This document shows, one piece after another, positions 13,703-36,775 of a DNA stretch of 64,000 nt. The position numbers were made by a program, and so were the translations under genes. The notes below the pieces were generated by a model. That model was not told where the DNA came from. It did no database searches and worked only from the letters and a program-made list of their open reading frames with translations. This DNA is from Macrostomum lignano. Its lineage: Eukaryota. The stretch's first letter is position 1, and every line of letters begins with the position of its first letter. The stretch is taken from the NCBI GenBank assembly GCA_002269645.1, contig NIVC01000581.1, positions 248,001 to 312,000 of the forward strand, given 5' to 3'.

Positions 13703-13838
13703 GGCCCTATGGCCCTATGAGGATGGTCAGCTGAGTCAGACCAATATGAATTGTGGACTTAGGCGGCAAGCGCTTAGCCCAGTCATCAGAGAGCCCTAGG
13801 ATCACCGTAGCCCCCTTCTCCTTCCGTTGACCTCAAGG

Positions 13839-16429: not shown

Positions 16430-16975
16430 TTGAATAGGCGCTGCGATTGAGGTGCAGGTCGCAAGCCCTCCCGCTCCTACTGCAGTCGGCACTATGCGAA
16501 ATGGGCACTGAGCTCCGAACTGCATAATAACTATGCTCGTACCTAAGCAAAATAGTTGCAAACCTACAGCGTATTCACGTCTTCTCTGGCCCAAATCTGA
16601 GTCTGTGCCAACTGAGATCAACTTCGTCTGCTCTGTTTCTGCTGCTTCCACAGAACTGTTTCTGCGACCAGCATTTATTTTCATCTTTACTGCACGGCCC
16701 CGTCATGCAGCCCAGATCGCCCAGATCGCTTGCTAATTTGGTTTTGCTGCTCCCATTAGCCGCACTGATTTATGCAGTAAGCACCCGCTTCATGGCACCG
16801 ACGGCACTGAGTCAACAACAACAGTTGAAGCCAACAAAAACCGAGCCAACCAAGTACCGAGTCAACAGCAGCAACAGTTGAAGGCGAAGCCAACCGAAAA
16901 AACTGTCGTGGCGTCGTTTTATCGGATATGCGGCTATGCTGCAGTTCACCGCCAGGAGCAGGTGAGACGATCTGT
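16430..16975 (+). pseudogene. Duplicated, frameshifted copy of the FkbM gene 5' region and exon 1 (16705-16961)
   Basis: Near-identical to 37600-37640 plus 37960-38450; indels break the frame; no downstream exons follow. Confidence 0.75.
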
Positions 16976-17074
16976 ACGTGCTGGAAGCTGCTAAAGTAAT
17001 TAACAAGAAGCCCATTGATTGAGCTGTTTTTGGTTTATTTGTCCAAACTAAACAACTAACACTGGCCACACACA

Positions 17075-19264: not shown

Positions 19265-19331
19265 ACACGCCGCTGAGCCGCAGTTGCCGCAGCTCCGGCC
19301 GTCAGCTGTCGGCTTCGGTGCCTCACGCAAC

Positions 19332-19670
19332 AGTAGTAGATACGATACAAAATTGCCAGCAAACCGTTCTCAGTATTCAAAGAGAATTGATCATTATCAA
19401 GTTGAAATGAATCGTTTTTCACTCCATTATCGCTCGTCTTCACTCCGCTCAACTCGCTCCGCTCATCCTCGCTTCATTCCGCTCAAACACACTTCATTTC
19501 AACTTGATAATGATCAATTCTCTTTGAATACTGAGAATTCGCTCTCGTCGTTCGCTTTAGTTTGCTGGCAATTTTGTATCGTATTCAAAAAGCATCCAAA
19601 CACACACAAACACACACAAACCCGTCGCCCGCGCCGTAGGCGCGAAGGGTCTTTTTCTGTTACTAAAAAT
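19332..19670 (+). repeat. Left terminal inverted repeat (339 bp)
   Basis: Reverse complement of 36431-36769; no differences seen. Confidence 0.95.
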
Positions 19671-19968
19671 GAACCGAGTTTACAACTTTTCAGTAAGTGA
19701 TACTTTTGAGACCGTTGCTAAAAATGCAGAGATAATAAAACAGCACATATTGAATGGAATAATTGAGGAAGTTTATTTAAAATACGACGACAAGCACGAA
19801 CTAAAACTTTATCCTTTAGAGTTAGATGGTTTGTATGATTTAGAACAAGAGGGTGAGTTAATATTTCAACTTGGAGATTATTTAAATTCCGAGGATTGGG
19901 AGGTTAGGTCAACAGATTCCGAATCAACAAATAGTTCTTATGAAACTAGTGATTCAGATAATCTGTAA
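19669..19968 (+). CDS. Polinton hypothetical protein, 99 aa, acidic
   Basis: ATG in TAAAAATG context; open frame. Confidence 0.65.
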   Translation: MNRVYNFSVSDTFETVAKNAEIIKQHILNGIIEEVYLKYDDKHELKLYPLELDGLYDLEQEGELIFQLGDYLNSEDWEVRSTDSESTNSSYETSDSDNL

Positions 19969-19984
19969 AAATATAACTAAAAAA

Positions 19985-20152
19985 ATGAACATAAATTATT
20001 CCTACATTGGCAAAGTTCCAGTTAAAGAACTTCATGAAAATTTAAGTTTGGTAACAGTTGAACAAATGTCAATAATGATATTAGTAGCTACAATAGTAAT
20101 AATATTACTTTTGTTTGTTATAAAAAAATTACTACCTTGTTGCCTTAAGTAA
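19985..20152 (+). CDS. Small single-TM protein, 55 aa
   Basis: AAAAAAATG start; hydrophobic IMILVATIVIILLLFVI. Confidence 0.55.
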   Translation: MNINYSYIGKVPVKELHENLSLVTVEQMSIMILVATIVIILLLFVIKKLLPCCLK

Positions 20153-21745
20153 TTGGCTTTCATAAAACGAACCCAATATTTCTTCACCATCTTTATCAGC
20201 AATGATATAGGTTGTAGGATTTGTATTTAAAACTTTACTAACAGAAAATTTCTCACTTATTTTCTAATATCCTTTTCTTCCCTTTTCAAACTTATCTTTC
20301 CATTTATAGATATAAACAGAATCACCAACTTTAAAAGGTTTATTTTTCTTTTTTTCAAATTCTCCAAAAGTAACTTTAACTTTTTCAGGATTGTTATAAG
20401 CTTGTTGCGGAGTCATATTTATAGCCGAATGAAATGAATTATTATAATCTTTCACTACGTCTAATAATATCTTTACCCATTTTTGGTTACCATTAAGCCT
20501 AAACTCAAACCACAATTTCTTACCTAAAGTTCGATTAAATCTTTCTATTAAAGCGTTTTTGCTTTCGCCATAAATAGAATAAATCTTATTAATATACTCC
20601 CCATTAGCGTCCTTTTTCCTTTCTTTTCCTTTTTCAAAATGATATAATTTATACATATGTGGATTATAAAATTCCTTTCCTTCATCAACACATAAACGTT
20701 CACTTTTTTCTCCAATACTTCTAAAAGCAGAAGCAACCTCGTCTCCTTTTTTGGACTTCAAAGGAACAGCCCACGCATATCGAGTAAAACCATCTAATAT
20801 AGTTAAAATATATTTATATCCCCGATCGGACGGCATAGCCATTAAATCAGCATACCAAATTTCATTCTTTTTAAAGTTCATGATCTTTCTGTAAAATTTC
20901 GGTTTTCGGTATTCTTTGTGAAGAATCTTTGCCTCATCAGAACTTAACCCACCACCACTTAATAGCAAACACTCAACACAATTATTTCCATGTTGATTAT
21001 AATTAATTCCCAAACCAAATTTAACTTTAGACTGCAAAATCTTTTTAACCATCCACCGAGTTAATCTTTGGCCAACCGACAATTCTTGCAGATTATCTAA
21101 TCCTTCAATCATTTTTCTATCGGCTTCATGCTTTAATTTTAATGCTTCCTCAGGAGAGTTCTTATCAGCATCTCTGTATGCTAAGTCATGATAATATGCT
21201 AACCAATCAATTCCGTTAATGGAAATTGAATCTGCTTTTGGAGTTCCATCTGGATTTAATCTCAAATCCAATCTTGTCCCGGGTAGTTTACCCCCAATCT
21301 TTCGATAGAGGCTGGAGCACACCTTAAACGGCTAAATTACCACCCATCTCCGTCTGCTCATCTGAACCTTCTCCATATCGGCCACCGGACGGACTTAGGA
21401 GCTTGGCTGCGCATTGCCACCTTGTCTTCAAGCTTGTTACCTTTGGGAAGAGGAGTTACCTCTGTTCCTTCAAAAGATTTCTCAATTGAAGTGGACTTGA
21501 AGCTGTATGACGGGTTTCACGCAATTTGAAGATGTCGCCACTAATAGTGACTAGCAAGGACATTGACTTCCTCACTCAGGCCACGGATAACCTGCAAACG
21601 AGTACCCTGGAATGTGTAATTCATTTGTATACTTCCCACTAGTAAAAACGCTTGGTAAGCTTGTTAATCCTTTTTGAACATCCAACAAGCCACCTTCATA
21701 CACAAGTTGGTCGTTCCTTCGGATCGCGAACGTTGTTTGGTTCAT
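20132..21745 (-). CDS. PLA2-like domain fused to rve (DDE) integrase. Exon 1 21745-21590, exon 2 21283-20132, with a premature TAG at 20264-20266.
   Basis: Joined frame gives ELHIPGYSFAG|PGTRL...IDWLAYYHDLAY (parvovirus-type PLA2). Integrase motifs WYADL, ILDGFTRYAW, VDEGKEF, LIERFNRTL. Read-through of the stop gives KVLNTNPTTY...GSFYESQL, typical of Polinton integrase C-termini. Confidence 0.9.
21284..21589 (-). ncRNA. Group I self-splicing intron, IC1-like, 306 nt, no internal ORF
   Basis: P AAAUUGCGUG, Q AAUGCGCAGC, R GUUCAGAUGAGCA, S UAAGGUGUGCUCC. P3 CAUCUUC/GGAGAUG, P7 GAGCA/UGCUC, P5abc with GAAA and GUAA loops, P9 with GAAA loop, P1 with U.G at the splice site. Removal restores the frame and the conserved motif. 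Confidence 0.9.
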
Positions 21746-22248
21746 TTTTAATGTCTAAAAAACAATTTTCAATGAGTTTAATTATTTCCAAATATTGATC
21801 ACCATATAAAAATTTTAAAGCAAATTCCCCAGTTAACAGAGTAACACCATTATCAAATACTTTATGTACAGGATTTTTAGTGGTGTTATTAATGCAAATA
21901 TAATATAAATCAAATTCGGGATTGACATATTTAAATTCTAATAACTTCTGAATATTTCTAAATCGACTCGATATTATCAGACTAATATATTATCTGATCT
22001 GTATTATCAGACGATTTTAACTCTAACGCAACTTTTCTTTTAGTATGAATTAAATCAATTCTATTTATTTTTTCAAAACCAAAATATTCAATAGCTAATA
22101 ATTCATAAAGAGATCCAAGCCTCATTTGAATAGTTTTAATACGGTTTGCAATTATTAAATCATCTTGAAATATTTTATTTAGTATTCTATCTGATCCAAT
22201 CTTTTCACAAATGGGTTTACAAAGGTGTCTTTTTATTGCTATATCCAT
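21696..22248 (-). pseudogene. PD-(D/E)xK restriction-endonuclease-like protein, disrupted near 21975-22005
   Basis: IKTIQMRLG...RIDL...VALELKSSDNTD, then in another frame SSRFRNIQKLLEFK...ICINN...GEFALKFLYGD. Confidence 0.6.
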
Positions 22249-22272
22249 TTTATAAAAAACAAATTTAACAAA

Positions 22273-22956
22273 TTAATTAATTCCAGTATGTCCGGCAGCT
22301 TTGGCAGCGGCTAAAACAAGTTTTCGCGGAGTCTTTAATCCTTGCCCAACAGCCCTTTTATTATTTATGGAATCAACAATATGCTTATACAATCTAGTTC
22401 TTTTAACAGCACTTTCACCCAAATCATCATAAAAAATTTTAGCACTTATTAATTCGTCCCGAGTATATAAATCAGGATTAAACTTTACACTAGGGTTTGT
22501 AACAATATTAAATGCTCCACCCAACTCTATATATAAATCATCCCGACTTTTTGTAACCCTAGTACCAACCCGATAATTATCATTCCCTAAATTTATAACA
22601 GCAACACTCGCTGGCGCACCTCTTTGAAATCGCTCAATATCACCACCACGTTCCGCAGCTCTAATCTCTGCAACTCTCAAAACAGCCCGTGCCTCATCAT
22701 AAGTAGGCGGCTCATCCTCCACAATATCTTCCTCTTTTGGCTCCGTATTCTTTGCTATTTTTTCAAGAAGGTCTTTATCAGTTTTTGTTAATTCACTAAT
22801 TTTCCCCGTAATAGGATTAACAAAAGGAGCAGCAAATTTTTCGCCAGCTAACTGTATTCCTAGCTTTCTTTTTTGTAAATCTCTAACAAAATCAGAATAT
22901 CTTTGCTTCTCTTTATAAATCGCCAACTCTCCATCAACGTCCATAAACTGACTCAT
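22273..22956 (-). CDS. Polinton hypothetical protein, 227 aa (possible virion core protein)
   Basis: Intact ORF; AAAAAATG start; C-terminal GQGL motif. Confidence 0.7.
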   Translation of the reverse strand: MSQFMDVDGELAIYKEKQRYSDFVRDLQKRKLGIQLAGEKFAAPFVNPITGKISELTKTDKDLLEKIAKNTEPKEEDIVEDEPPTYDEARAVLRVAEIRAAERGGDIERFQRGAPASVAVINLGNDNYRVGTRVTKSRDDLYIELGGAFNIVTNPSVKFNPDLYTRDELISAKIFYDDLGESAVKRTRLYKHIVDSINNKRAVGQGLKTPRKLVLAAAKAAGHTGIN

Positions 22957-22990
22957 TTTTTAACATAAAAAACTTTTTTAACCTATAAAA

Positions 22991-24472
22991 ATGGCCGAGA
23001 CAAAAACCATTTGGAGTGATAAATTTCATTTCAAAAAACAACGACAGTATATCAATGAGGTCAGATCAAGAGATTTAAATTACACCCAACCAACAAGCGA
23101 TAATTCAAATAACTTTACAACGGGAACAGTAACTTTTGACATTGGTGCAACCAGCAGCATATTGGATATGAAAAATGCGTTTTTCCGAGTTAGGTGGTTG
23201 TATACCAGAAACGATGGAACAGCCCTTACAGCCCCCGATATCGCTGATCGCGCTGGCATTATTATAGAAAATGATTGGTTTTATAAATGTTTTTCCCAAG
23301 CACAACTAACCATTAACGGAGCCGAGGTTGAGACGGCTACAAACCCAGCAGAGATTAATGGAGTTTTGAAACATTTAAATTATACATATTTATCAAAACA
23401 GGTTGGTGATAACGTTGGATGGATGCCTGATAAGGGAGATGGTAGACCATGGATTTTTCCCCAAATAACACCAGCAGCTGGCGCAGACACCGCAGCTCTT
23501 ATTAATTATTTAAATAATAATATAGTTCCGGTTGTAACGGATCTAACCAACACCAAAAATATAAACACTGGTTTTATAGACCGTCGGAATAAATTCCCAG
23601 TCGCGGTTTTAACCACAGCAACCGCTTATGAGGAAGACTTTTCAATCTTTCCACTATTTGGGTTTTTCTCACCAAATCGGGTATGGAAGGGATTAAAATT
23701 TGGGGTACAACTGCAAATATCTGGTGGATATCAGCCCAGGATACTTTTTGGAAGTTCAACCTCAACCGATATTGCAGTTCGAATTGTTTCGATTAAATTA
23801 GTTGTGCCAACTATCGAGGTAACTGCTCCGCTTTTAAAACATATTGATGATCAGATAATGTTAGACCAGGATATATTTTATTTGAATCGCCGCCACTTTA
23901 TGCGAACCATTAATAACAATCAGGATTCATTCCAGTGGCAAATCATACAAACAAAACGTCGGGTGAGGTATATTTTTATTTGGTTTAAAATACCAAACAG
24001 AACTAGCAAAAGAGGAAACGGTGATTTATATTGGCTTCAATCTGGTGATGTAGCAGCTCAAGCAGCCACCGCAAGTGACAACGCGCTTTCGGCGATTAAC
24101 ACATTTAATCTTCAGAACATCCGACTGCAGGTTGATGATCAATATTATCCTGTTAAAAACCCCCTTAATCTAAATGTTGGAAATAATGATGTTAATGATT
24201 TTATAAAATATTATCAGGATTACGTCAAAAACGAAGCCTACGCCATTCCTCAATATACTCCCACAGAGTTTCTAAACATTCACCCCGTGGTTGTTTTTGA
24301 TCTAACCGCACAGAAAGCAAATGTAGCAAATATTGGTTTGAATTATATGTTGGAGATTAATAAAACTGGAAATCAGGCAGTAGACGCCCACGCATTGTTT
24401 CTAGAGGAGTATATGGCGATTGCTAAAGCCGACGGCACCGTTGTTCAGGACGCCCCCATAGGAAAAAGTTAG
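22991..24472 (+). CDS. Major capsid protein (double jelly-roll, Polinton PY/hexon-like), 493 aa
   Basis: Intact ORF of MCP size next to ATPase and minor capsid; beta-rich pattern (VTFDI, FFRVRW, IVSIKLVVP, YIFIWF, VVVFDL). Confidence 0.85.
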   Translation: MAETKTIWSDKFHFKKQRQYINEVRSRDLNYTQPTSDNSNNFTTGTVTFDIGATSSILDMKNAFFRVRWLYTRNDGTALTAPDIADRAGIIIENDWFYKCFSQAQLTINGAEVETATNPAEINGVLKHLNYTYLSKQVGDNVGWMPDKGDGRPWIFPQITPAAGADTAALINYLNNNIVPVVTDLTNTKNINTGFIDRRNKFPVAVLTTATAYEEDFSIFPLFGFFSPNRVWKGLKFGVQLQISGGYQPRILFGSSTSTDIAVRIVSIKLVVPTIEVTAPLLKHIDDQIMLDQDIFYLNRRHFMRTINNNQDSFQWQIIQTKRRVRYIFIWFKIPNRTSKRGNGDLYWLQSGDVAAQAATASDNALSAINTFNLQNIRLQVDDQYYPVKNPLNLNVGNNDVNDFIKYYQDYVKNEAYAIPQYTPTEFLNIHPVVVFDLTAQKANVANIGLNYMLEINKTGNQAVDAHALFLEEYMAIAKADGTVVQDAPIGKS

Positions 24473-24492
24473 TTAATTTATTTCCTTAAAAA

Positions 24493-25263
24493 ATGGTAAA
24501 GCCAAAACATAATAAAATATTTCCCAACGACCCTTTTCTTTGTTTAGTTGTTGGAGGATCAGGTAAAGGAAAAACACACTTTGTTTATGATTTATTAACA
24601 ACCAATGGAATGTTAGATTATAATAATTTAATAATATATACAAATAGACCTAGAATAAAATATTATGAATTTCTTAAACATGGATTAAAAAACAAACTAA
24701 AAAAAGATATTTTATTTAGAATGTTAAGAGCATATGAGCAATATGAGGACGACGATGAACCAAAATTCAAACTTTCTGACATTGAGGGTTTATGTAGAGA
24801 AACTGCGCAGAATCCAGAAAACGTCGACAACAACTCCCCAACGATCCAAATATCAAACAGATTAACCTATGATAAAATCCCAAAAGACGATAAAACATTA
24901 ATTGTATTTGATGATTGTATTTATGATGGTGATCAAGAGTTGCAAAAAGAAATTTTTGTTAGCGGCAGAGGAGATGGAATTGGGGCATTTTATCTTACTC
25001 AATCCTTTAGAGAATTAGATTCAATTATAAAAAAGAATGCTAGCTGTTGTGTAATGTTTGATCTAGATAACTATGATTTAAAAAATATACACGTGAGATT
25101 TAACCCTGGTTTAGATCCAAAACCATTCAAAAGCATGTGTAAAAAAATTTGGGATGACAACCAATACAAACATATTTATATCAACACTAGGTTAGAAAGG
25201 AGAAATAGAATCTTACAAAATTTGATACACGAGGAAGAGGAAGAGGAAGAGGACGAGGAGTAA
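24493..25263 (+). CDS. A32/FtsK-like DNA packaging ATPase, 256 aa
   Basis: Walker A GGSGKGKT, Walker B IVFDD, YLTQSF. Confidence 0.93.
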   Translation: MVKPKHNKIFPNDPFLCLVVGGSGKGKTHFVYDLLTTNGMLDYNNLIIYTNRPRIKYYEFLKHGLKNKLKKDILFRMLRAYEQYEDDDEPKFKLSDIEGLCRETAQNPENVDNNSPTIQISNRLTYDKIPKDDKTLIVFDDCIYDGDQELQKEIFVSGRGDGIGAFYLTQSFRELDSIIKKNASCCVMFDLDNYDLKNIHVRFNPGLDPKPFKSMCKKIWDDNQYKHIYINTRLERRNRILQNLIHEEEEEEEDEE

Positions 25264-25297
25264 TGGTCGGACTTTGGTACTAATTCACACTATAAAA

Positions 25298-26083
25298 ATG
25301 GCAGTGAACCTCGATACAATAAAACAAGTGGTTGATAGAACCAACGCAAGATTTAGTACGACTTTACAATTTGTAATGACAAGCAGCGAGCAAAGGATTC
25401 AATTACGTAACCCACTAACTCTTGATCAGACATTAAGTTATGAAATTGGTTTAATAATGTTTTCAGTTTTTAACATGCCTCAATTGATTAATGCAACAAA
25501 TAATCAATTTAGATATTCTAAAGATTCAGGAGCAAATTGGACAACCATTACTATAACACCGGGCGCATATAACTATACTGATTTGAATACCGTAATACAA
25601 GCTGAGTTAACAGATAATAGTGATTGGGTAGCAGACGCGATTGTTATAGGAGTTGATTTACCATCAGGCAGATTCACACTTACGTTAGCAGCCGGATATC
25701 AGGTTGATTTTACAATTGCCAATTCACTTAGAACCATATTAGGATTTAATTCCCGAATCGTTACCACATCAACCACGGGCGATACCGTGGGAAATATTGA
25801 AGGCGGAGTCAACACAATTAATATTACAACCGATATTTCAAATGGTGGTTATATAACAGATGATAACGGATTCTTGGTTCAGCGCGGAATTATTTATTCA
25901 ATTCCATTTTTAGCTGTGCCAATTGGGGATAAAATGATAGTTGCACCTCAAACCCCAATTTATTATCCACTAAATCAATATAATTTACAATCAATTTATA
26001 TAAGAGTTGTAGATGATTCGGATCGACTTATTAGTTTTGGCGGACAAGCAATAACAATAATTTTAAGAATAAAACAGGTTTAA
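25298..26083 (+). CDS. Minor capsid protein (penton-like), 261 aa
   Basis: ATG in TATAAAAATG at 25298; ITITPGAYN, LGF, IYYPL, IRVVDDSDRLISFGG pattern typical of Polinton mCP. Confidence 0.8.
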   Translation: MAVNLDTIKQVVDRTNARFSTTLQFVMTSSEQRIQLRNPLTLDQTLSYEIGLIMFSVFNMPQLINATNNQFRYSKDSGANWTTITITPGAYNYTDLNTVIQAELTDNSDWVADAIVIGVDLPSGRFTLTLAAGYQVDFTIANSLRTILGFNSRIVTTSTTGDTVGNIEGGVNTINITTDISNGGYITDDNGFLVQRGIIYSIPFLAVPIGDKMIVAPQTPIYYPLNQYNLQSIYIRVVDDSDRLISFGGQAITIILRIKQV

Positions 26084-26093
26084 TATTCTAAAA

Positions 26094-26303
26094 ATGGGTA
26101 ATAGTACCGAAGGTATGATAAAAAATCAAATGGTAAAAGTTCAAAAAGCAAAAGATAATTATGAAATCGAATTAACAAAATTGAAACATCTACAAGCCGA
26201 AAAAACAAGACAGGAACTATTAAAACCCGCGGATAGTCGCCACGTAGTGTCGCGGACTTTGTCCGAGAAACTAACAAAAACAAAGAGTTTTTCAGGAACA
26301 TAA
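26094..26303 (+). CDS. Small coiled-coil protein, 69 aa
   Basis: TAAAAATG start; tightly packed between neighbours. Confidence 0.55.
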   Translation: MGNSTEGMIKNQMVKVQKAKDNYEIELTKLKHLQAEKTRQELLKPADSRHVVSRTLSEKLTKTKSFSGT

Positions 26304-26304
26304 A

Positions 26305-26737
26305 ATGACTATGAGTTGGAATCAGTTCAAACAAAGATATGGAACGGACACAACAAGTAATATTGAATTGACAAACTGGGCGCGGCAATTAAAAATAAAA
26401 CCATTCAGATGTGTTATGCGCGATGAGATAAAAGACTTACCACGATATGGATCTTTCATTGTCAATATTGAAACAACCAAAGAAAATGGTGTACATTGGT
26501 CAGCAGTTTATTCAAAACCCAAACTCGTTTATTTTTTTGATTCATTTGGCCTACCCCCGTTGCATGAAATAAAAGACAAATTTAAATACTAAAAATCGAT
26601 TATGTGGAGATTATCACGAACAGTTTCAAACCTTTGATAAAAGTTATTGTGGACAGGCGGCGTTGTATTTTTTATATAAAATTCGTAACTCGAAAGAAAC
26701 TCCAGAGGATTTTAAAAACATATTGGATTCATTTTAA
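26305..26737 (+). pseudogene. Adenain-like cysteine protease with a 1-nt frameshift at ~26590
   Basis: GVHWSAV (His), YFFDSFG (Asp), and after the shift QFQTFDKSYCG (Gln/Cys). Confidence 0.9.
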
Positions 26738-26760
26738 TATGGTAAAAATGGACTCTAAAA

Positions 26761-28754
26761 ATGTTATTTAGTGGAACACCCTCATGGAACGGAACTTCAA
26801 GAACTGGCGGCGGAGAATCGAGTGGAATAAGTGTTACATTTGGAGACAACCGATATATAAATAAAGACGAAGGTTATAAAAAAGTGAAATCGATACTAAA
26901 TTAAATTTAAAACGGAATGTTGCAGATTCCTATACCAAAACTCAAATCGATAATTCATTAAATTTAAAACGCAATACTGCGGATTCATATAGCAAGACGG
27001 AAATAGATAATTCATTAAATTTAAAACGTAATATATTAGATTCTTATAGTCAAGCCGAAGTTGATTTCGAACTTAATTTAAAACGGAATGTGGCAGATTC
27101 ATATACCAAAACGGAAATTGATAATTCATTAAATTTAAAAAGAGATATAACCGATTCTTATACCAAAACCGAGGTTGATAATTCGTTAAATTTAAAAAGA
27201 GATATAAGCGATTCCTATAGTCAAACTCAAATAGATAACTCCTTAAATTTGAAACGAAATGTCGCGGATTCTTATACCAAAACCGAGGTTGATAATATAG
27301 TCGGGAGCGGAACCCCAAAACAAGATAGGTTCCAAACCGTTCAAACCGGTCATGTACCAACAATGGCTGCTTGGAGTGGAAACGGTTTTGCGATCACAGC
27401 AAGCTCGGCATTTAATACAACCAGCTTTGCAAGTTGGAAAGCTTTTGATGGGGACGACGCAACGGATTGGGCAACTAATGCAACACAAACAGATTACTGG
27501 ATTCAAGTCCAATGTCCATCCGCGATAATGTGTTATAAAATTGATTTGCGTGGTAGACCGTCGCCCTCAACCGAGCACCCTGCTTCATGGCGATTTGAAG
27601 GAAGTAATGACAATACAAGTTATGATGTTTTGATTCCGGCGGCGAGTTCGGCGGAGTTAAATAATTCAACCCAAACATTTAATGTCACACAAAATTTTGA
27701 TAAAGAATATTCATATTTCAAATTGTTTTGTCTTACATCAACATCGGGTTCAACCAATCCAGGCTTATCAACATTTCAGATTTACAGGCAGACTTTTACC
27801 GTTATTGATTTGAATTTAGGAGCAGTAAATCAGTCTATTGATATGGGTGGTAATACAATTACTAATATATCTACTATAAACGATAACACATCTGTTGTGA
27901 CTAAAGGTTATGTCGATACGGTTGTAACACAAACGGCGGACGGTAGAATGTCTTTTAATGATAAAATTAAATTGGATGGTATTCCGGCAATTGATGCCGC
28001 TTTATATGAGCCAGTAATATGTAATTGGAATGGCTATCAAAACCCAACAACTGCTGGCGATATTTTTCCAACTGGGTCTATGGTTGGAAATGCGATTTAT
28101 ATTGATTATCAAAACGGCGCAAGAATTACTGACGAAGGCGCTGGACTCAATGGAGCGTTACAATTTAATTTCACCCATTTCCGTAATGTTTCTGTCTCCT
28201 TCTATTTCCGAGTTGCTAATGCTGCGGGTGGTGGAGCTGGTGCAGACGCCGTTTAGTTTTATGCTTACTGCCACCAACGACCAACAACGGAATATGGATC
28301 TGATTTAACAACCGACGCCGGCTTAATAGTGTTTGCTAGTGAATGGCATGACAGATTCGGCTTGCTTTGGAGTAATAAAAAAGCTGACGGAGCAACCGTC
28401 CGCAATGACGTTCTAAATGACGCCGACCAAACTGTAACCTATGCCAATATTGATAATGGCAATTGGCATCTTTTTGAAATTAATATTCTTAATCAAAGAG
28501 TTTGGTATCAGTTAAGCTCATACAATGTTGCTGGAGATTCTTTGACACTAATTGGGCAAAATGTTTTTACGTATGATAGTGGCACTTGGGGAGATCTAGA
28601 TAAATCCGGAACGCTTATGGGGTTTGGTGCTCGAACCGGAGGAGCGGATGCGGCGCATTTTATTCGTGGAGCAATAGTTTGTGGTAGTACATCATTTGGT
28701 TATACTTTTCCATCTACTCCTTATTTGGAAAGGCCGCCGGTAGCTATCAGCTAA
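26761..28754 (+). pseudogene. Fibre/receptor-binding-like protein: 19-aa repeats, discoidin (F5/8C)-like domain, L-type-lectin-like C-terminus. 1-nt deletion at ~26880 and TAG at 28254-28256.
   Basis: 7+ copies of SYTKTEIDNSLNLKRNVAD; ASSAF...WKAFDGD...W...YWIQV...FEGSND; GADAV*FY...GFGARTGG; ORFs 27090 and 28329 share a frame. Confidence 0.7.
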
Positions 28755-28804
28755 AGCTGCGACCCTACGGGGCGATAAGTTAGTCTAAAATATTTCTATA
28801 TAAA

Positions 28805-29134
28805 ATGGCTTTTAGCAGAACTCCATCAATGCGGCAAGGTAATAATATTATTATTCCGATTCCTAAACAAGAATCAAATATAAAAACTTTTAGATCTCAT
28901 ACCAAAATTTTATTTAGCGGAGTGAATGTTCAAGACAATAAGAAACTTCAGGAGTTAATTAAATTATTAAAAAACCATATTATATTACAAGAGTTTTGGA
29001 AGATTGGATTTAAATGGGAGAAAAAAGAAAGAATAACTCCAATCCAATACTTATTGAGCGCTGGACAGATTCCTAAGGAGCGTGGGGAATTCATTTTGGT
29101 GTTATTAAAAATAGACAAAAATGTCGGTGTCTGA
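28805..29134 (+). CDS. Polinton hypothetical protein, 109 aa
   Basis: TATAAAATG start; intact. Confidence 0.6.
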   Translation: MAFSRTPSMRQGNNIIIPIPKQESNIKTFRSHTKILFSGVNVQDNKKLQELIKLLKNHIILQEFWKIGFKWEKKERITPIQYLLSAGQIPKERGEFILVLLKIDKNVGV

Positions 29135-29803
29135 AGCGGACAGAAAAGAGCGCGATCTATTTAACCAACGTAAAGGACGCATGTTAAGTAATGTCGATCG
29201 AATAAATTATGATTATGATTTATATAGTAAAAAATTAAGAAAGCTTTCAAACCATATCAGGAATATGGATTTTTTCAATATTGGTTTTGGAAGTTTATCA
29301 ATGTTATGTGTAATCGTTTTGGGTATTTTGCAATCGATTCCAACTATTAATTTATCTCAATTATTTTTAGGTATTTCAATTGGTTCAATATCAGGTTTTG
29401 AATTAATAATAAACTTATCAATTCTTTTGGCAATTAAACTATATCTTAAAAAAGAAAGGATAAATATAAATCACTAAGAGATGTTGCTAAACAATATAAA
29501 AATCAGTTATATTTATATGTGCAAAAAATATTAGATGATGGAGAGATTACAATATATGAGTTAACAACCGCGGTTGAGTTATATGATAAATATTTAAAAG
29601 ATAGAAATCGAATTTTAGATATTGAAGCTTTTACCGATATGGAATTGAAAGAATTAAGACTTGACAAACCGAACCCTCCACCTATAGAAACGATCGGACA
29701 AAGTCCGCGTTCCTTCGGAACGATGGAGTACCAGCCTGAGGTTATAGCTGATGGTGTACAAAGCCCACGGTCAGGTAGCACGATAGAACTTCAGGTTGTG
29801 TAA
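29121..29803 (+). pseudogene. Two-TM membrane protein, frameshifted at ~29470
   Basis: Two hydrophobic helices; the downstream frame is open from ~29475 (LRDVAKQYKNQLYLYVQKIL) to 29803. Confidence 0.55.
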
Positions 29804-29827
29804 TTTATTAAAAATATATTCTAAAAA

Positions 29828-30175
29828 ATGGATCAAGGAATAATACATAAAGTTATTTTGGATGCGAACTCCTGCCCGTCTACCAAAGATGTAACCTTTT
29901 ACGTAACGAAAGAAGAATTAAATGTAGAGGATAAAATCCTTTTTAAAATGGCTTCGGTAGATGGTATAAATATATATACGCAGATGTTGGATGGTTCTTA
30001 TCCATGCTACTTTTTTGGTGTATATATTATTAAAAATTATGTTAGGGGGTTGGTTGGTATTCCCCAAAAAAACCTGCCACAATATATGCAAGAAGAATTT
30101 GTTTTATATGGTGCTCCATTTAGTATTAAAAGTGTGGAAATAATTAATTTAGAGAGTTTAAGAAATTCTATGTAG
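29828..30175 (+). CDS. Polinton hypothetical protein, 115 aa
   Basis: TAAAAAATG start; intact. Confidence 0.6.
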   Translation: MDQGIIHKVILDANSCPSTKDVTFYVTKEELNVEDKILFKMASVDGINIYTQMLDGSYPCYFFGVYIIKNYVRGLVGIPQKNLPQYMQEEFVLYGAPFSIKSVEIINLESLRNSM

Positions 30176-30698
30176 ACCCATCAGTAACTTTTTTAATACA
30201 TAAGTTATATATTCTTCCCACAATGGTAATTGCCTTTTGATTCGAGGTTCAAATTTTTTATCAATACATAAAAATACCAATGACTTTTTCAATAACATTT
30301 CACTTGGGATATTTCTGATCCTTATATGTTTTGTGTTCTCTCTCATAAGAAAATTGAAATAATATCCAACCAGAGTTAAAATCCTCTCGGAGTCTTTCGA
30401 ACTTAATCCTTTTCCTTTATTTAAATGAAAAAAGTTATTATATAAATAAACATTATTTCCGGGGATGGCATTAATTTGTGTGCCGTCTGGCATTTGAAGG
30501 GATGGGTGTGAAATGTCACATGATAAATTTCTTATAATTGTGTTTTTGAAATAGTAATATGAGTTTTCAATCTTTTTTGTTTTTTTCAAATTGATATATC
30601 TTAGCGCATGAATAACACATGTGATATATATCTCAATTTGCTGTTTGTCCTCTTTGCATAGTAATATTACATTTATTACATTCATATCTGTGTTTCAT
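30158..30698 (-). pseudogene. Hypothetical protein, probably with an N-terminal CxxC...CxxC zinc ribbon, disrupted
   Basis: AAAAAAATG at 30698 reads MKHRYECNKC...AN*DIYHMCYSC; the C-terminal part is in the 30158-30685 frame. Confidence 0.4.
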
Positions 30699-30724
30699 TT
30701 TTTTATTATTTTTTTAGAATAAAA

Positions 30725-31048
30725 ATGGAAACCTGGTTCAAAACCGATTCTAATAAAATTAATTTTCTAACCACCAATTCTCTGGTGCCGAAGGAGTATG
30801 ATATAATATGTTTAAGACAGGTTAAATTTATCGGAATTCAATCGATATTTTTACAACTAAACGGTGGAACAATACTATGCTTAAGCGGCGATGAGGTTAA
30901 AGAATTCCCAACGATTGTTATAAATAAACCTAAAACTTTTATTATGAAATACTCACCAACGGATGGTTTGCAATTTAAACAAAGACAAGCAATAAACAAA
31001 AAGGTTGACAGGACTGTAAAATTGGCTGCTGTTTGGGAGGAAGACTAA
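30725..31048 (+). CDS. Polinton hypothetical protein, 107 aa
   Basis: TAAAAATG start; intact. Confidence 0.6.
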   Translation: METWFKTDSNKINFLTTNSLVPKEYDIICLRQVKFIGIQSIFLQLNGGTILCLSGDEVKEFPTIVINKPKTFIMKYSPTDGLQFKQRQAINKKVDRTVKLAAVWEED

Positions 31049-31063
31049 ATTTTTTATAAGAAA

Positions 31064-31329
31064 ATGGCGAGCGTAAAAAACCTTCTGTGCACTCACAATA
31101 AAGAAATGAATGATATTAATAAAAAATTAAATATAATTAACGAACAGAAATATAGTGATTATGGAGACCGAACGAAGTTCGCGTATCTTTACGATGATAT
31201 GTTTCCGATTCGATATGAATTAGAAAAAAGAGAACTTTTATAAAAGCCGCAATTGCTTATGCTGAAACCGTTATTGAAAATGAGATAGATCGTCTTGTTA
31301 GACGAATAAAAATACTTCGAAAAAAGTAA
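31064..31329 (+). pseudogene. Small helical protein, frameshifted at ~31240
   Basis: AAAATG start; continuation KAAIAYAETVIENEID in a shifted frame. Confidence 0.4.
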
Positions 31330-31424
31330 AAGAGTGTTTAAGTTATCCTGACGATTGCGAAGATAATTGGTGTTCTATAAAATATGAAATGGAAATGGAT
31401 ATTCTACTTAAGGAATTACATGCT

Positions 31425-34400
31425 TTAGTTTTTTATAAGTGCTAGTTCATCAATATCAAACTCAAAACAATTATAATCAACATCAAAAAGTAAGCTGTTA
31501 TAATATTCAATTGTATGTTCATGTTCCGGTTTGTCATCAAAATAATTTTTAAAGAATGGTTTCATAATTCCTTTTTTATCCGGTTTTTCTCTTTTATAAG
31601 TATTAATTGATGGTGTATATGTTTTTGATATAAAACCTTGACCAATTGTTATACCACCTTCAAACGATCGTTTCCATGGGGCGTTATTATTTACTTTTAT
31701 TGATTGACCATCATATAAAGTTTTAAACGATGCAAAATTAACCCTATCGTTTGCACAACCTTTAAATGTTTTTTTCTCTTCCAATATAAAACCGTCTTTC
31801 AACAAAAGACAATATTTAATTTTAGGAGCGATAAAATATCCGAATATAATTCCGCCCTCTCCATAATCGTTTTTTCCTTGACTTAAATTATTTCCGACGT
31901 GCCCATTTTTATTTAATGTATCCCAATGTTTTTTATGTATATATAATGAATCGGTGTCTCCGTAATAAATTTCTGGATTCTTTGATCCGTCGATTGATGT
32001 GATAAAATTATTCATAATTCTTCTTGAATGAGCTAAAATAAATATGCCTAATTGAGCAGAACAAAGTCCGGTTGTTGGATTGTCGTCGTCTTCTATATAT
32101 TCTTGCGTGTCTTTCTTTTTTTCTACATAAAATAAGTCGTCACATATTTTCTCATATGACTTGATTGTGTCGTCGTATTCATTTTTTAATGTATTCAAAT
32201 TCCAGAGATGTGTTGTGAAAGTAATGTCTCTTTGAACTGTTTTACCATATAATGAATTTAATAGTGTTTTTATCAATTCAGAACCCGCCTCATTATTTTC
32301 TTTTTTAAATACTTTTCTCATTTTTTCTCATTTCAAAAAGATTTGTAATATAATTCTGAAACGGAGAGAAATCGTAATTTTTCTCATATACAATTCCACT
32401 ATATATCTTTAATATTTTACCACCCATTCTTACGATTTCTTGTATGTCTACCGAGCAAAGGGTGTCGATTACCTTTCCGTTTCTGAACCTATTTAATGTT
32501 TTTGTTTCGTTTGCTTTTGTCTCCGGATTATAAAATTTCTCTTTGTCCTTAGATGGGAGATGCTGAAGAAAAACGGTGTTAGGATTTTCATACATAATCT
32601 TTAAAATCGCTGTTTTTGGTCGAAACGTTTGGGAATTAAACTGTGACAAAAAATATTTTTCCTCGCTTATATCAAACACCCTACCACTTTCTGCTCTTGG
32701 GTATTCACTATCTTTATCAGACATGGCGGATGGGTACAATGACACCCCATCAAAGTTCATTAAACAATCAGATACAGTACCCAATTCGTTTTTTAATTTA
32801 ATTGCAATTTTCTTTTTTTCTTCCATATCGCTTTTGAGATAAGTTGATATAACCTCGCATGGGTCGGCTGTTGGTGTTTTTAAGTGGTCTTTTACAACGT
32901 CTACAATTGTTTGAAAACATTCGCTTTCGTATTTATTTATTAGTGCAAATACTCTGCCTCCTTTGACTGCCTCCCGCATAAATCTTCTTATATAGGGGTC
33001 AATATGAGAGTAAACAGAAAATTCTTTTCTTAATAATGTTTGATATTTCGTTTTTTCAAGCTTAGACAAGTCAAAATAATCTTCTATTTTCAATGGAGAA
33101 ATTATTTGTTCGACTTTCTTAATATAGTTGGTTTTTTCTTTTGTCTTTAGGTATTCTTTCATTTTGTCTTCCACTCTAACAAAATCTTTAAACCAACATT
33201 TTAATGTTAAACTTGAACATGTAAGAGTATCAAACATTGTCATGCCTCCAATTGCATATGCGATTTCGTTATACTTATGAATACAAGCACACAAAGAAAT
33301 AAGATCAAATTGTAAATATTCATACCATTCATCAATCCGTTCTAGATAATCGTCCTCAGTAATGTCATGCACCATTGATGTCTTGCGCAAATCCTCTCTA
33401 ATTGTCATTGACGAACAAAACTTTTTTAAACTCATTGAGGCGTGTTGATATGAACAAAGCATCGTAATGGTTTGTTTTGAATCCTTATGTTTCTTCTTTT
33501 TATCTTTGTTTATAAACGCTGATACCTCTTTTGACATATAATCATTAACAAAAGTTATTGATAATATTCCTCTGGGGGTTTTAAGAATTTTAATTGGTTT
33601 TATGTTGCAAAATAGTGGTATATAAGAATCAAAGCGGGATGAGTTATGGGCGATCAAAACAATCTTTTTTGACTTAACTGAACCAAGGTATTTAAACATT
33701 TTTCTAACGCAGTCCGTTTTTGTTCCGTCTGTTTTGAAATCACATCCGCGATCTGAAATCAAGATCTTAGTTAATTTCTTTATCGACTCTGGGCTTTCGT
33801 TACAATTATTAGAAAAGTCATTATAGTTTAAAAGACCAACAGCATACGGACATGCTTGTTGATTATCGTTTAAATATGTTTCAAAATCAAATATGTATAC
33901 GTTTGATTTATTTGGATTTGTCGGAGTATTAAACATTTTTATCTCTTGCACACTATCCGATTTTGGGTTTTTAAATACTACTTTATAATTCTCTTTTATC
34001 CAATCAAGACCAATTCCTCGTTGTTTATTGGATATGAGGCAATAATGTCCAATATGATAATCAGCTGCGTGGTAGTAATTTATTAATAACCAATCGTGGT
34101 GGATGCCTCTTTGTGACTTTGGTTCTATTCCCCGATTATTAGGGTTATACATAAACCTATGTTCAAATTAAAATGCTCATTGAATTTTCCAATTCTTGAA
34201 TTTGTCATTATGCCTCTTTGAGTTCTTGAGTTGTACAACCAAGCGCCATATTCTTCTTTAGACGGTGTGTTATCACCATAAATAAATTTAACACACTTAT
34301 AGAAGCAATTACCATCACTAGGTATGAAACAATACTCATCCTGATACTCTGCAATTTCACACATGACGTTTGTGCCCATACCTTGCTTTGACCTTTCGTG

Positions 34401-35018
34401 TTTAATCGTAATGACGTTTGGTGTCATTTTAAGTCTTCCAGAAAACACGCTTAGATTCATATCATAGTTTTCTACCAAATGTTTAAACCAAGCTTGAAAC
34501 TGACTTATATTATAAAATGTTGCTAAGTATTGATTAATTTCTTCCCGATCATCGCCGGTTTTGTTATAAAAATATTGTACTCTCGCGTTAGTAATTTCAA
34601 CACTATATCCGTTTGAAAGTTGTGTTTCAATAAAGTCTAAGACATTCTGCATTGGTTCAAACCTATATACTCGAATAAATTCTTCTAGTGGTTGTTCAGA
34701 CGATTTAATGTTTGTTTTCCGACGTTGGGTTTTCTTTTGATTTTTTTCTAGCTCTGCTATTCTTTTTTCATATTCGGCCTTTTCTATTAATCGTTTCATT
34801 TCATATTCTGCCCTTATATCATTTGCTAATGCTTTTATTTGTTGTTCTTGTATTTCTCTTTCTCTTTGTCTCTCTCTTTGTCTTTGTCTTGCTCTTTGCC
34901 GACGGTGCTGTCTTTGGCGCTGTTCAATTTGTTCAACCTGTCTTTGTAATCGATTGAACTGTTCGCGCTCGTTTGCAAGAAGTTGTCGAATCTGATCTGG
35001 GGTCAGTCTTTGTTCCAT
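31425..35018 (-). pseudogene. Protein-primed family B DNA polymerase in three pieces (frameshift at ~34150; 10-bp duplication at 32313-32332)
   Basis: Exo I IFDFET, Exo II AHNSSRFD, Exo III YLQFD, KGGRV, DGVSLYPSAM, KTLLNSLYGK, YGDTDS. Confidence 0.95.
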
Positions 35019-35105
35019 TTTATAGAATAAAATTTATACAATATTTACTACCCTACTCGAGTTGCGCTTTTGGTAAAATTAGCCCGCTGCCTGAAACGTT
35101 TGCAT

Positions 35106-36010
35106 TTAAAAAATTCCAGATCCCGCTTTTGGTCTCATTTCAAGATATAAGCCGCTTCCGTCGTGCTTTTCAATTATGTTAAAATCTTTTCCTAATTTAT
35201 TAAAAATCTTCTGAACAGCTGGCCTAAAATTGGCTCCGATATTATCAAAAAATCCTTTAGCTTTTTTGCCGGTTTTTTCCAAAGTTTGTCCGAATTCGTG
35301 TAATTTATCTGCTACAACCCCGCTTCCGTGGGTCGTTCCTTGTAAGATTAAACCCTTTCCAGCCGCTAATTTAGCTTCTGCATTTCTTTTTTGTTCTGCT
35401 GTTGCCGAACTACTATTAATAGTATCAATCAGTTTTTGTTTAAATTGAGCATCCTGAGTTATTTGCTGTCTTTGGAATTCAGCCTCTCGTTTGGCTTTTT
35501 CATCCGCAGCTTTTTTGTCGTTTACTGCTTTTGCAATTCCAGCCGCCCCACCTGCTACTCCACCAGCTGCTCCGATTCCTGCAAAAATTATTGGGAGCAA
35601 AGTTGCAAGCGGAAGTATACCCCCCTGTTTTGCTTTTAATTCTCCTAGCTGTTTTCGATTATCATGAATTCTTTTGGCTGCTAAACCAGTTGCTCCAGCT
35701 GCTCCCAGTCCTAAAAGAATTGGTAGAATGGGCAATAATCCACCGTCCTTTTTAGTATGAGTCTCCAATAAAAATTTCACATCGGATTCCGTTAACCTAT
35801 AGTTTTTATTGTTATGCTTAAATGAAATTGGCCTTCCTTCTTGTGCATATTTTGCAGCGAGTTTAAAAGTATCGATATTATAATCTAATTTTTTACCTAA
35901 ACGATCTAATCTTTTTAACATTGAATGACTCTGTTTATTATCATCCAAGTTTAAGGTGTCTACTATTTCTCCTATAAAATATAGGCGCCCTTCATCATTA
36001 ACTGCGTTAT
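35106..36010 (-). CDS. Adenovirus pX-like / membrane-active virion core protein; original ATG apparently lost
   Basis: Two GG-[LI]LP hydrophobic Gly/Ala-rich segments (GGLLPILPILLGLGAAGA; GGILPLATLLPIIFAGIGAAG) resembling the pX C-terminus; frame open back to TATAAAAAT-AAC (one G short of ATG). Confidence 0.6.
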
Positions 36011-36020
36011 TTTTATATTA

Positions 36021-36422
36021 CTAAAACTTCTTTAATCCTTTTCCACCTTTAATGGTAGTTAGCATTTTATTAAAATCTTGGATATCTTTATTACTTATTG
36101 GGTTGGTTTTAGTGGGTGTTTCAGTAGGTTGTGCGGCTTCTTGTGCTAATTTTAAATCTTTTATTGCTTTTATTTGTGAGAGGGTGTCGTTAAATTCTCT
36201 CCATTTTTTAAGTTCCTCCGCTGCCCTAGCCGCTTCTATTCCGCCCTTTACCGCATTTGTTATAGAGCCTGCAGCCGAGCCCGCTTGTCCTATCAAGCCC
36301 ATATTATCTTTAACCAAATTTGCTGCTGATCCTATCACATCAAAAAGACCCTCACCTCGGTATTCAACTGGGTCTCCTACTTGCAATTCATTTAGATTGG
36401 ATAGTTGGGTAATGTGTGTCAT
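36021..36422 (-). CDS. Polinton hypothetical (possible core) protein, 133 aa
   Basis: AAAAATG start next to the TIR; GEGL and GKGL motifs; amphipathic Gly/Ala segment. Confidence 0.6.
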   Translation of the reverse strand: MTHITQLSNLNELQVGDPVEYRGEGLFDVIGSAANLVKDNMGLIGQAGSAAGSITNAVKGGIEAARAAEELKKWREFNDTLSQIKAIKDLKLAQEAAQPTETPTKTNPISNKDIQDFNKMLTTIKGGKGLKKF

Positions 36423-36430
36423 TTTTGTCT

Positions 36431-36769
36431 ATTTTTAGTAACAGAAAAAGACCCTTCGCGCCTACGGCGCGGGCGACGGGTTTGTGTGTGTTTGTGTGTG
36501 TTTGGATGCTTTTTGAATACGATACAAAATTGCCAGCAAACTAAAGCGAACGACGAGAGCGAATTCTCAGTATTCAAAGAGAATTGATCATTATCAAGTT
36601 GAAATGAAGTGTGTTTGAGCGGAATGAAGCGAGGATGAGCGGAGCGAGTTGAGCGGAGTGAAGACGAGCGATAATGGAGTGAAAAACGATTCATTTCAAC
36701 TTGATAATGATCAATTCTCTTTGAATACTGAGAACGGTTTGCTGGCAATTTTGTATCGTATCTACTACT
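36431..36769 (-). repeat. Right terminal inverted repeat (339 bp)
   Basis: Reverse complement of 19332-19670. Confidence 0.95.
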
Positions 36770-36775
36770 CGCAAC

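Follow-up and report, generated by a model that had tools for sequence, protein, structure and literature searches.

What kind of sequence interrupts the PLA2-integrase gene of a Polinton lodged in the genome of Macrostomum lignano, and why does it sit exactly where it does? The locus lies in a stretch of 64,000 nucleotides (assembly GCA_002269645.1, contig NIVC01000581.1, positions 248,001 to 312,000 of the forward strand), which is the window analysed here and whose own numbering, starting at 1, is used throughout. An earlier note, made from the letters alone, read a 306-nt insert in this gene as an IC1-like group I ribozyme intron. We found that the insert is a group I intron. It is also probable, in our judgement, that an intron from giant viruses and a methylase-free nuclease of the Eco47II type act together as a homing or exclusion pair, whose specificity would come from the purge of the site GGNCC from the element. 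The positions of all features are collected in Table 1.

Exons 1 and 2 share one reading frame across the insert, and its removal joins YSFAG to PGTRL, as the note had seen. In addition, three natural intron-less copies of the gene (L035, L036 and L056) have these codons contiguous at exactly the junction of the window. The insert has a GC content of 0.477 against 0.22-0.39 in the adjoining 100-nt bins, and T is the last exon base in every intron-bearing junction tabulated, which provides the U.G pair in P1. Regarding the exons themselves, exon 2 matches rve with an E-value of 9e-7, a score below the Pfam cut-off for exon 2 alone, and the intron-less relative L168 matches PF08398 and rve, which supports the PLA2-integrase assignment. 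The Rfam model RF00028 matches positions 21293-21599 over its full length with 45.5 bits (E 2.5e-10). This is less than the gathering score of 50, so a routine Rfam scan misses the window intron, and a scan of the whole window at the gathering level indeed returned no match. The sister copies score 55-91 bits, among them a twin whose intron differs by one base from that of the window (L002, 55.3 bits), a short-intron sister (L019, 65.9 bits) and all 28 scored long introns (72.7-91 bits). That the insert might be spliceosomal, or a structured insertion arising by chance, has almost no probability left, and we count this idea as refuted. The end of exon 1 does read AG followed by GT, minimum-energy folding of the insert is not unusual (z -0.59) and the window copy scores under the gathering level, but none of the eight in-frame AG acceptors leaves the frame open, the sister copies pass the gathering level, and P4, P5 and P7 covary.

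The structure was read from the window copy and compared over 47 distinct introns (39 short and 8 long), whose base changes are inherited and thus represent few independent events; P1 and P9 were omitted from the pair counts, as gap placement is unreliable there. Within this set 94% of the cells pair, against 38-54% when the partners are slid, and two-sided changes occur in 12 of 57 pairs, against 0-4 with partners slid by 1-3 columns. Between the two Polinton families described below, two-sided changes fall on three P7 pairs and one P4 pair; P2 shows a four-pair block swap in 7 copies, while P3, P5a and P5b have one two-sided change each. The G-C pair of the guanosine site is kept in 46 of the 47 introns. 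The helices P3, P4, P5a, P5b, P6a, P7 and P9.0 proposed in the earlier note hold across the set, and its P1 and P10 pairings are present in the sequence as described. Its register for P5c was wrong: covariation pairs GAG with the second CUC (G-C in 39 and C-G in 7 of the 47). An IC1-like architecture is sustained by P5abc, the A-rich bulge, the GAAA loop L5b, the receptor in P6a, and P2 and P2.1, both present in the intron family. In general knowledge of IC1 features, from which the P7 numbering is also taken, the P9.1/P9.2 extension is of the Tetrahymena type. Here a single P9 hairpin precedes the 3' end and this extension is absent, so we call the intron IC1-like and not IC1. The window copy has one additional base at 21360, within the bulge of its guanosine-binding site; this base is absent in the twin L002 and in 15 other aligned introns, and may be an assembly error.

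Copies of the interrupted gene are numerous. The pattern of the filled 5' junction has 143 exact matches genome-wide and none in the control. Among 60 loci taken as best matches, five places being included twice, the insert is always at one codon junction; three are the empty copies already named, two have an intron of a second type, and one further locus is a rearranged fragment. We also found that the ten long introns inspected represent this same intron within a second family of Polintons (B), whose integrase is 52-57% identical to that of the family of the window (A), and that the family B intron occupies the same junction in all 8 loci with exon 1 in view. Genome-wide, 28 RF00028 matches were scored out of a rough 29,353 candidates, and all 28 lie on contigs that also hold the nuclease. 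L168 is an empty allele of family B, with little element sequence outside the integrase, and is 91-95% identical to intron-bearing exon 2; its junction is common to 19 sites on 17 contigs, of which C20 alone was inspected. The empty-site pattern has a high background, with 36 matches in the control against 60 here, and only the 22 matches fitting the two families were used. On the exon 2 tree, filled and empty alleles and those of the second type are intermingled, which fits repeated transfer and also ordinary recombination.

That all this resides in an animal nuclear genome, as the earlier note had it, is upheld by 86 Wnt matches (of 92 candidates) and 33 matches to collagen IV NC1 (of 44 candidates), with none in the control genomes for either. 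Wnt exons and intron-bearing copies occur together on contigs C952, C506 and C67; on C952 the distance between a Wnt exon and a filled intron site is 24 kb.

The intron has a companion that the earlier note missed, namely a nuclease gene located 150-650 nt upstream of the intron in family A and inside the same intron in family B. In the long introns of family B, the open reading frame (ORF) occupies the P2.1 loop and reads on through the ribozyme core. The nuclease ORFs score 28.8 and 26.2 against Pfam RE_Eco47II (PF09553; cut-off 25.9) and conserve the D...ExK motif. Residues 1-164 have a confident fold prediction, and a fold comparison with 48,161 chains puts EcoO109I first (Z 9.7, rmsd 3.8, 167 aligned; the next one has Z 6.0). 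EcoO109I is described as recognizing RG^GNCCY (PMC3089450), an Eco47II homologue, RM.MhoV, as recognizing GGNCC (PMC12376442), and Eco47II is given as a type II enzyme, mostly bacterial (PMC3424549). The target of the present nuclease would then be GGNCC, judging from its family relatives and from the site purge presented below. A search with the nuclease sequence returned one chance hit in the PDB, and Foldseek on viral models gave none at E <=0.001.

Genome-wide, 112 nuclease matches were found among 124 candidates. In family A the gene is free-standing, immediately upstream of exon 1, and unbroken in 16 of the 59 loci examined; it is broken in the window copy, and in the rest an HNH/Endo VII-like gene has mostly taken its place. 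The slot between the upstream ORF and exon 1 holds the Eco47II gene, a zinc-finger HNH/Endo VII-like nuclease (phrog_1035, E 5.5e-11) that is present in all three empty copies, or a 155-aa ORF without any family match (slot examples are L035:825-1391, L048:462-1088 and L026:881-1345). Mean dN is 0.038 and mean dS 0.167 over 36 pairs, and between families dN is about 0.26 with dS above 2; as judged from these rates, the nuclease is under purifying selection. No cognate methylase stands beside the nuclease in the elements, and the six matches (of 10 candidates) of a C5 methylase search are one intron-split gene on three contigs. Distant relatives of the nuclease, at about 30% identity, are free-standing, with a C5 methylase in convergent orientation at 12 of the 12 loci checked; 4 of 10 viral nuclease matches are giant-virus assemblies. 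The 17 closer homologues (46-63% identity) come from metagenomes. Eleven metagenomic proteins of the tree set finish in a tail translated from the same ribozyme core, which shows that the intron-nuclease unit is not confined to this genome. In a quick tree, whose key nodes have a support of 86-89, the clade of core-tailed proteins holds the free-standing genes as sister group of the intronic ones, which weakly suggests that the nuclease escaped from the intron. No group I core and no Polinton gene was found at 90 environmental nuclease loci (L077-L166), and the nuclease as a single query, the PLA2 part and the P5b motif had no match in viral contigs.

Why the intron sits at this codon may be explained by the composition of the element. 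Whatever codons are used for Gly-Pro, they read GGNCC, and the intron falls between the two codons, after the third base. In the window Polinton, GGNCC is altogether absent from the 17,438 bp, against 10.0 expected from a Markov model, 21.7 from dinucleotide shuffles (0 of 300 reach zero) and 15.1 from codon shuffles (0 of 2000 reach zero). GGNCC is the most depleted of 256 gapped 5-mers, the next one standing at 0.64. The proteins of the Polinton lack Gly-Pro in 4,316 aa, against 8.3 expected (1 of 2000 shuffles), and have six Pro-Gly. Family B also has no GGNCC in 8,850 bp (5.8 expected). In 27 distinct segments of family A, amounting to 64,711 bp, the sole three GGNCC are the three empty intron sites; one empty copy has none in the 8,983 bp upstream of its junction and three in a foreign-looking insert. 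In the controls the site persists: the host flanks have 121 (143.7 expected), an unrelated Polinton of the same genome (L167) has 4 (7.5 expected), and none of 69 viral or metagenomic loci with an expectation of at least 4 has zero. The loss of all four GGNCC variants argues for a 5-bp specificity and not for a long site. Furthermore, none of the 20 contigs with an empty site in either family holds the nuclease, the 17 of family B being represented among inspected contigs by C20.

From these observations we propose a mechanism. The intron would belong to a family common in giant viruses and would travel with an Eco47II-type nuclease, taken from a restriction-modification pair whose methylase was left behind. 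The Polinton lineage has lost every GGNCC and every Gly-Pro pair save the Gly-Pro of the PLA2 calcium loop. As the intron sits in the middle of that GGNCC and the other sites are purged, the DNA of the element would be uncuttable, and splicing would restore Gly-Pro in the mRNA. The intron thus seems to cover the only predicted cut site and to stand in for the protective methylase. If an intron-less sister element shared the cell, it would receive a single cut, at its empty site, and would be either lost (exclusion) or repaired from the intron-bearing genome (homing). A 5-bp enzyme could act as a homing endonuclease in this way because the virus itself has made the site unique. The nuclease lies within the intron in family B and adjoins it in family A, an arrangement that would correspond to collaborative homing. 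Typical of homing endonucleases are the intronic ORF of family B and, provided that the target is GGNCC, an insertion that destroys the target. The complete arrangement, a 'restriction-interruption' system in which a bare 5-bp enzyme, a genome-wide purge including Gly-Pro, and a last site placed under a working self-splicing intron go together, is in our opinion slightly favoured over its negation.

Several observations weigh against this proposal. CCNGG is the second most depleted word of the element (10 against 15.5 expected), and environmental restriction-modification loci are depleted for CCNGG (0.47) and not for GGNCC (0.94), a contrast that is probably tempered by the fact that owners of a methylase need not avoid their own site. 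The absence of the nuclease from the three empty copies of family A is not significant alone, and many intron-bearing copies of this family hold the HNH/Endo VII-like gene in the slot instead. The quick tree, with its support of 86-89, would allow movement in either direction between intron and slot, and none of the 80 viral intron loci discussed below has an Eco47II nuclease, nor does any have a Polinton gene. With 121 GGNCC in 46.6 kb of flank, a 5-bp cutter would shred the DNA of the host, and nuclease expression would have to be limited to a phase or compartment that tolerates such damage. Another explanation makes the nuclease a weapon directed at other DNA, be it that of host chromosomes in a lytic phase, of a helper giant virus or of unrelated elements; the intron would then serve only to protect the one site that resists purging, with homing incidental. 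A genome-wide purge suits a 5-bp cutter of any DNA, the family A gene is free-standing, and in Bodo saltans virus intron nucleases have been proposed to be weapons of this sort (PMC5871332), as has been shown in a phage (PMC11620839). Yet the gene lies within the intron in family B and in the metagenomic homologues, and filled, empty and second-type alleles alternate on the exon 2 tree as they would under repeated transfer. We consider the weapon explanation unlikely as a replacement; it shares the antidote logic with the homing or exclusion pair, and the two are not mutually exclusive. Alternatively, an outside restriction system, in a giant virus or an earlier host, may have purged GGNCC while intron and nuclease hitch-hiked. 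Giant viruses do carry Eco47II-methylase pairs, and intron-less and nuclease-less copies also have no GGNCC elsewhere. However, the unrelated Polinton of the same genome keeps its sites, and the element possesses its own Eco47II-family nuclease, under purifying selection and associated with the intron, beside or inside it, in two families whose integrases share only 52-57% identity; the chance that we grant to an outside purge is slim.

Other findings that count against the proposed system concern splicing. The window intron ends in A, at 21284, and not in the terminal G, a point on which the earlier note was silent, and 29 of the 47 distinct introns, the window copy included, do the same; 16 have a terminal G, among them all 8 long ones, and 2 are ambiguous. 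We class the G-ending copies as group I members and the window copy as an A-ending variant. The loci were picked by likeness to the A-ending window copy, which inflates the share of A. No contig joining exon 1 to exon 2 was found in four sequencing runs, and contigs span both intron borders with an intron coverage like that of the exons. The check proposed for the ligated junction thus lent no support to splicing, and it is a weak check with these limits: it used contigs only, all of them on one abundant A-ending haplotype (L048:950-1900); no run holding these sequences is recorded as RNA, the RNA status being guessed for three of the four, and DNA may be present. Its sensitivity is that of one haplotype, because intron-less genomic copies were also undetected at this likeness. 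Contigs stopping exactly at the 5' splice site were considered as a sign of splicing and rejected, since a variant 30 nt upstream explains them. The integrase could start without splicing at the in-frame ATG at 21112, which precedes the whole integrase core, so the integrase may not need splicing. The claim that integrase expression relies on self-splicing is therefore not supported as stated for the integrase itself, and survives for the PLA2 domain, which, going by the reading frames, does depend on it. One may then suppose that the short introns, including that of the window, no longer splice and are baggage spread with an integrase that starts at the internal ATG or acts in trans. The frequent terminal A, the extra base at the guanosine site of the window copy, the unseen ligated junction and the ATG at 21112 all agree with this. 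On the other hand, the core of the A-ending introns is conserved as well as that of the G-ending ones, exon 2 is open in 15 of 15 distinct A-ending copies (L031-L060, the best integrase matches), the share of A is inflated by the choice of loci, and a mitochondrial intron of corals, ND5-717, ends in A and is spliced in vivo (PMC6545197). For the short introns as a class, a complete loss of splicing is highly improbable; for the window copy alone, it may come near to an even chance while staying below it.

Regarding the source of the ribozyme, at least 122 stretches of viral contigs match an 18-nt motif from P4/P6. Of 80 viral loci from IMG/VR (L171-L250), 73 align to the short intron, the 25 best at 62-70% identity, and 18 of these viral loci are named as giant-virus assemblies. 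Among 19 flanking ORFs scanned, ten encode capsid, RNA polymerase or topoisomerase II proteins of nucleocytoplasmic large DNA viruses (NCLDV) and three HNH nucleases; the locus L185 carries the P7 variant of the window. The origin in protist or fungal rDNA considered in the earlier note was not borne out, as the relatives found in the viral contigs searched are introns in protein genes of giant viruses. The data would thus indicate a giant-virus source, while a link to rDNA may exist beyond the viral contigs searched.

The note had also supposed that such introns were not described for Polintons. This stands for animals and not in general: RF00028 introns are reported in Polinton-like viruses of three protists, Rhodomonas lacustris, Paulinella micropora and Desmodesmus armatus (PMC12220804). 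As here, those introns are about 300 nt long, match RF00028 and interrupt a protein gene of a small integrating DNA virus. They are confined in that account to the three protists and to a short ORF upstream of the capsid gene, with no endonuclease annotated, whereas the present ones occupy a PLA2-integrase gene in an animal genome, with an Eco47II nuclease and a site purge. The polr2a/b introns of Bodo saltans virus, for which masking of the nuclease target and interference between co-infecting viruses were proposed, belong to the same core family; the giant-virus introns of that article have HNH or GIY-YIG nucleases (PMC5871332), whereas the present nuclease is a type II enzyme whose family has 5-bp sites, carried by a small integrated virus that is passed on within animal chromosomes. 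The same article proposes intron nucleases as competition weapons, a role shown for a phage (PMC11620839). Nuclear group I introns are described (PMC3679873) solely in rRNA genes of microbial eukaryotes; the IC1 ones resemble the present intron in being nuclear, of P5abc type and with the ORF in a peripheral loop, and differ in their His-Cys box nucleases with sites of 15-20 bp. As regards animals, a 2025 database lists group I introns in placozoans, corals and sponges alone, mostly mitochondrial (PMC11835236). ND5-717 is an animal group I intron with an A end and ligated exons, and differs in being mitochondrial, obligatory and in an unrelated host gene (PMC6545197).

The nuclease has its own precedents. 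I-Ssp6803I and I-Bth0305I also place a PD-(D/E)XK fold in a group I intron, but they are of other families (PF11645 and Vsr-like) and the site of I-Ssp6803I has 17 bp (PMC3424549), whereas the present enzyme derives closely from Eco47II enzymes that are paired with a methylase, and a short site is what the evidence favours. With the Eco47II restriction-modification systems (PF09553) it shares sequence family, fold and catalytic motif; unlike them it has no methylase, and protection apparently comes from site loss plus the intron. In collaborative homing (work of Bonocora and Shub, 2009, as cited in PMC11296320), a free-standing nuclease beside an ORF-less intron is proposed as the forerunner of intron-encoded genes. 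It is described in phages, and here the free-standing and intronic states are found in one genome. Restriction-modification systems are suggested for this virus group in a preprint of 2026 (10.64898/2026.10.13.758929), and another preprint, on nematode Polintons, only speculates on an intron source for an HNH domain (10.1101/2023.08.22.554363). In a literature search that left subscription journals largely uncovered, we found no report of group I introns in animal Polintons or of Eco47II-type homing. The locus is of a known kind, a mobile group I intron with an endonuclease, and apparently its residence in animal chromosomes and a specificity made by purge are unreported. The interpretation in the earlier note is partly supported; the site purge, like the restriction-enzyme partner, had escaped it.

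If the proposed system is true, an intron replaces a methylase and a restriction enzyme serves as homing endonuclease, and catalytically active group I introns, many with a terminal A, would exist in protein-coding genes of the nuclear genome of an animal. More than 100 copies in animal chromosomes, in a protein gene, make possible a direct test of ribozyme splicing of mRNA in an animal nucleus. The link with the nuclease offers a plausible route from restriction enzyme to homing endonuclease without any long recognition site, with both stages in one genome. Additionally, since homing or exclusion needs two element genomes per cell, and since intron and nuclease both point to giant viruses, there is an indirect indication that animal Polintons live, or once lived, as viruses in the company of giant viruses.

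The host element, as the earlier note had recognized, is a Polinton: this we base on its terminal inverted repeats, 6-bp target duplication, rve integrase, A32 ATPase and protein-primed polymerase. Its ends read AGTAGT, of the AG...CT type, and its capsid protein would be of the double jelly-roll kind found in Polintons, by way of a family B relative (L170). The protease candidate has no Pfam or PHROGs match and was recognized by motif likeness only. The window copy is a decaying member of its family, with a broken nuclease, a polymerase in three frames, the terminal A and the extra base at the guanosine site.

Table 1. Features of the Polinton, its interrupted gene and the intron in the window.
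Feature	Position	Strand	Remarks
6-bp target-site duplication	left 19326..19331; right 36770-36775	+ (left)	
Polinton/Maverick	19332..36769	.	17,438 bp, AT-rich, no GGNCC
Left terminal inverted repeat	19332..19670	+	339 nt, 100% complementary to the right one, internal hairpins
PLA2-integrase gene, exon 2	20264..21283	-	starts with PGTRL; remaining PLA2 domain and rve integrase; internal in-frame ATG 21112
Group I intron	21284..21589	-	306 nt, no ORF, last base A; basis: RF00028, frame analysis, sister copies
P9.0 and P9	21284..21313	-	GAAA loop in P9; terminal A 21284
P7, 3' strand of P3, and P8	21315..21360	-	P7 = 21359-21355 with 21319-21315
P6a	21371..21401	-	tetraloop-receptor-like motif (motif from general knowledge)
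P5abc extension	21426..21502	-	GAAA loop L5b, A-rich bulge
P2.1 hairpin	21535..21553	-	loop is the position of the endonuclease ORF in the second Polinton family
P1 helix, U.G pair at 5' splice site	21577..21594	-	internal guide sequence 21577-21584
PLA2-integrase gene, exon 1	21590..21745	-	52 codons, ends in YSFAG; last codon is the Gly of the Gly-Pro in the PLA2 calcium loop
Eco47II-family restriction endonuclease, free-standing	21756..22248	-	broken: two frames, stop 21982
Conserved ORF upstream of nuclease slot	22273..22956	-	
Major capsid protein	22991..24472	+	no Pfam hit of its own; 24% identical to an L170 protein matching PF21738
A32-type packaging ATPase	24493..25263	+	assigned by E-value
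Probable minor capsid protein	25298..26083	+	from position and likeness to an L170 gene
Adenain-like protease candidate, motif only	26305..26800	+	split over two frames; end approximate
Fibre-like gene(s)	26880..28754	+	57-nt repeats, F5/8 type C domain
Protein-primed DNA polymerase B (pPolB)	31425..35018	-	three open frames here
PZ-like protein	35106..35921	-	weak Adeno_PX match
Right terminal inverted repeat	36431..36769	-	

The terminal repeats contain nested hairpins with arms of 53 nt and 25 nt. A MIR8643 match on the terminal hairpin, the sole Rfam output over seven whole loci (27.6 kb), was discarded as spurious. The second intron type (L037:1169-1500 and L057) is 332 nt long, scores 38.3 bits with RF00028 and uses the same 5' site; its P3, P4 and P7 differ from those of the first type, and P2.1 and P5abc are shared. 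Its ligated exons would be without GGNCC, because the best-fitting 3' end omits the Pro-Gly codons. About 20 integrase matches resemble this type. In seven distinct type A introns (including L025, L028, L029, L039, L043 and L058) the P2 hairpin resembles that of the second type (L037), which suggests an exchange of modules between introns, as far as the sequences tell. GC-rich hairpin inserts of about 30 nt are presence/absence variants in intron loops (L040, L067, L070 and L071), and a similar one lies at the start of exon 1 (21715-21740); they resemble mobile double-hairpin elements. A contig of run X1 with a loose end at L048:1240 has P2.1 continuing into sequence unlike the known start of the nuclease ORF, hinting at another loop insertion variant.

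The integrase search gave 1,824 candidates, of which 119 were scored, a number of candidates that suggests a very large load of Polintons. Since many genes are present on different contigs as two or three near-identical copies, the copy counts may include redundant haplotypes. One copy is rearranged, with the start of the polymerase fused to the 3' half of the intron (L038:1260-1500). A family B element has a RING-finger ORF (L170:440-751), and the gene order of this family is unlike that of family A, with structural genes downstream of the integrase. The unrelated Polinton (L167:1-4225), at a locus without family B genes, has separate PLA2 and integrase genes on opposite strands, and its polymerase, in an element that keeps its GGNCC sites, holds an Endonuclease VII-like insert. 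Around the window Polinton, the flanks encode AMOP, carboxylesterase, CXXC, PHD and P-element domains; the host-side features at 8418-9932, 44149-44706, 47371-48935, 59741-62973, 38932-41227 and 13097-13714, amid many tandem repeats, comprise an AMOP domain, an FkbM-type methyltransferase, CXXC/PHD fingers, a multi-exon carboxylesterase, a P-element transposase and an RNase H. A repeat of about 310 nt, 96-97% identical between 16674-16983 and 38140-38450, flanks the Polinton, its two copies being 21.5 kb apart, and overlaps a reverse-transcriptase fragment.

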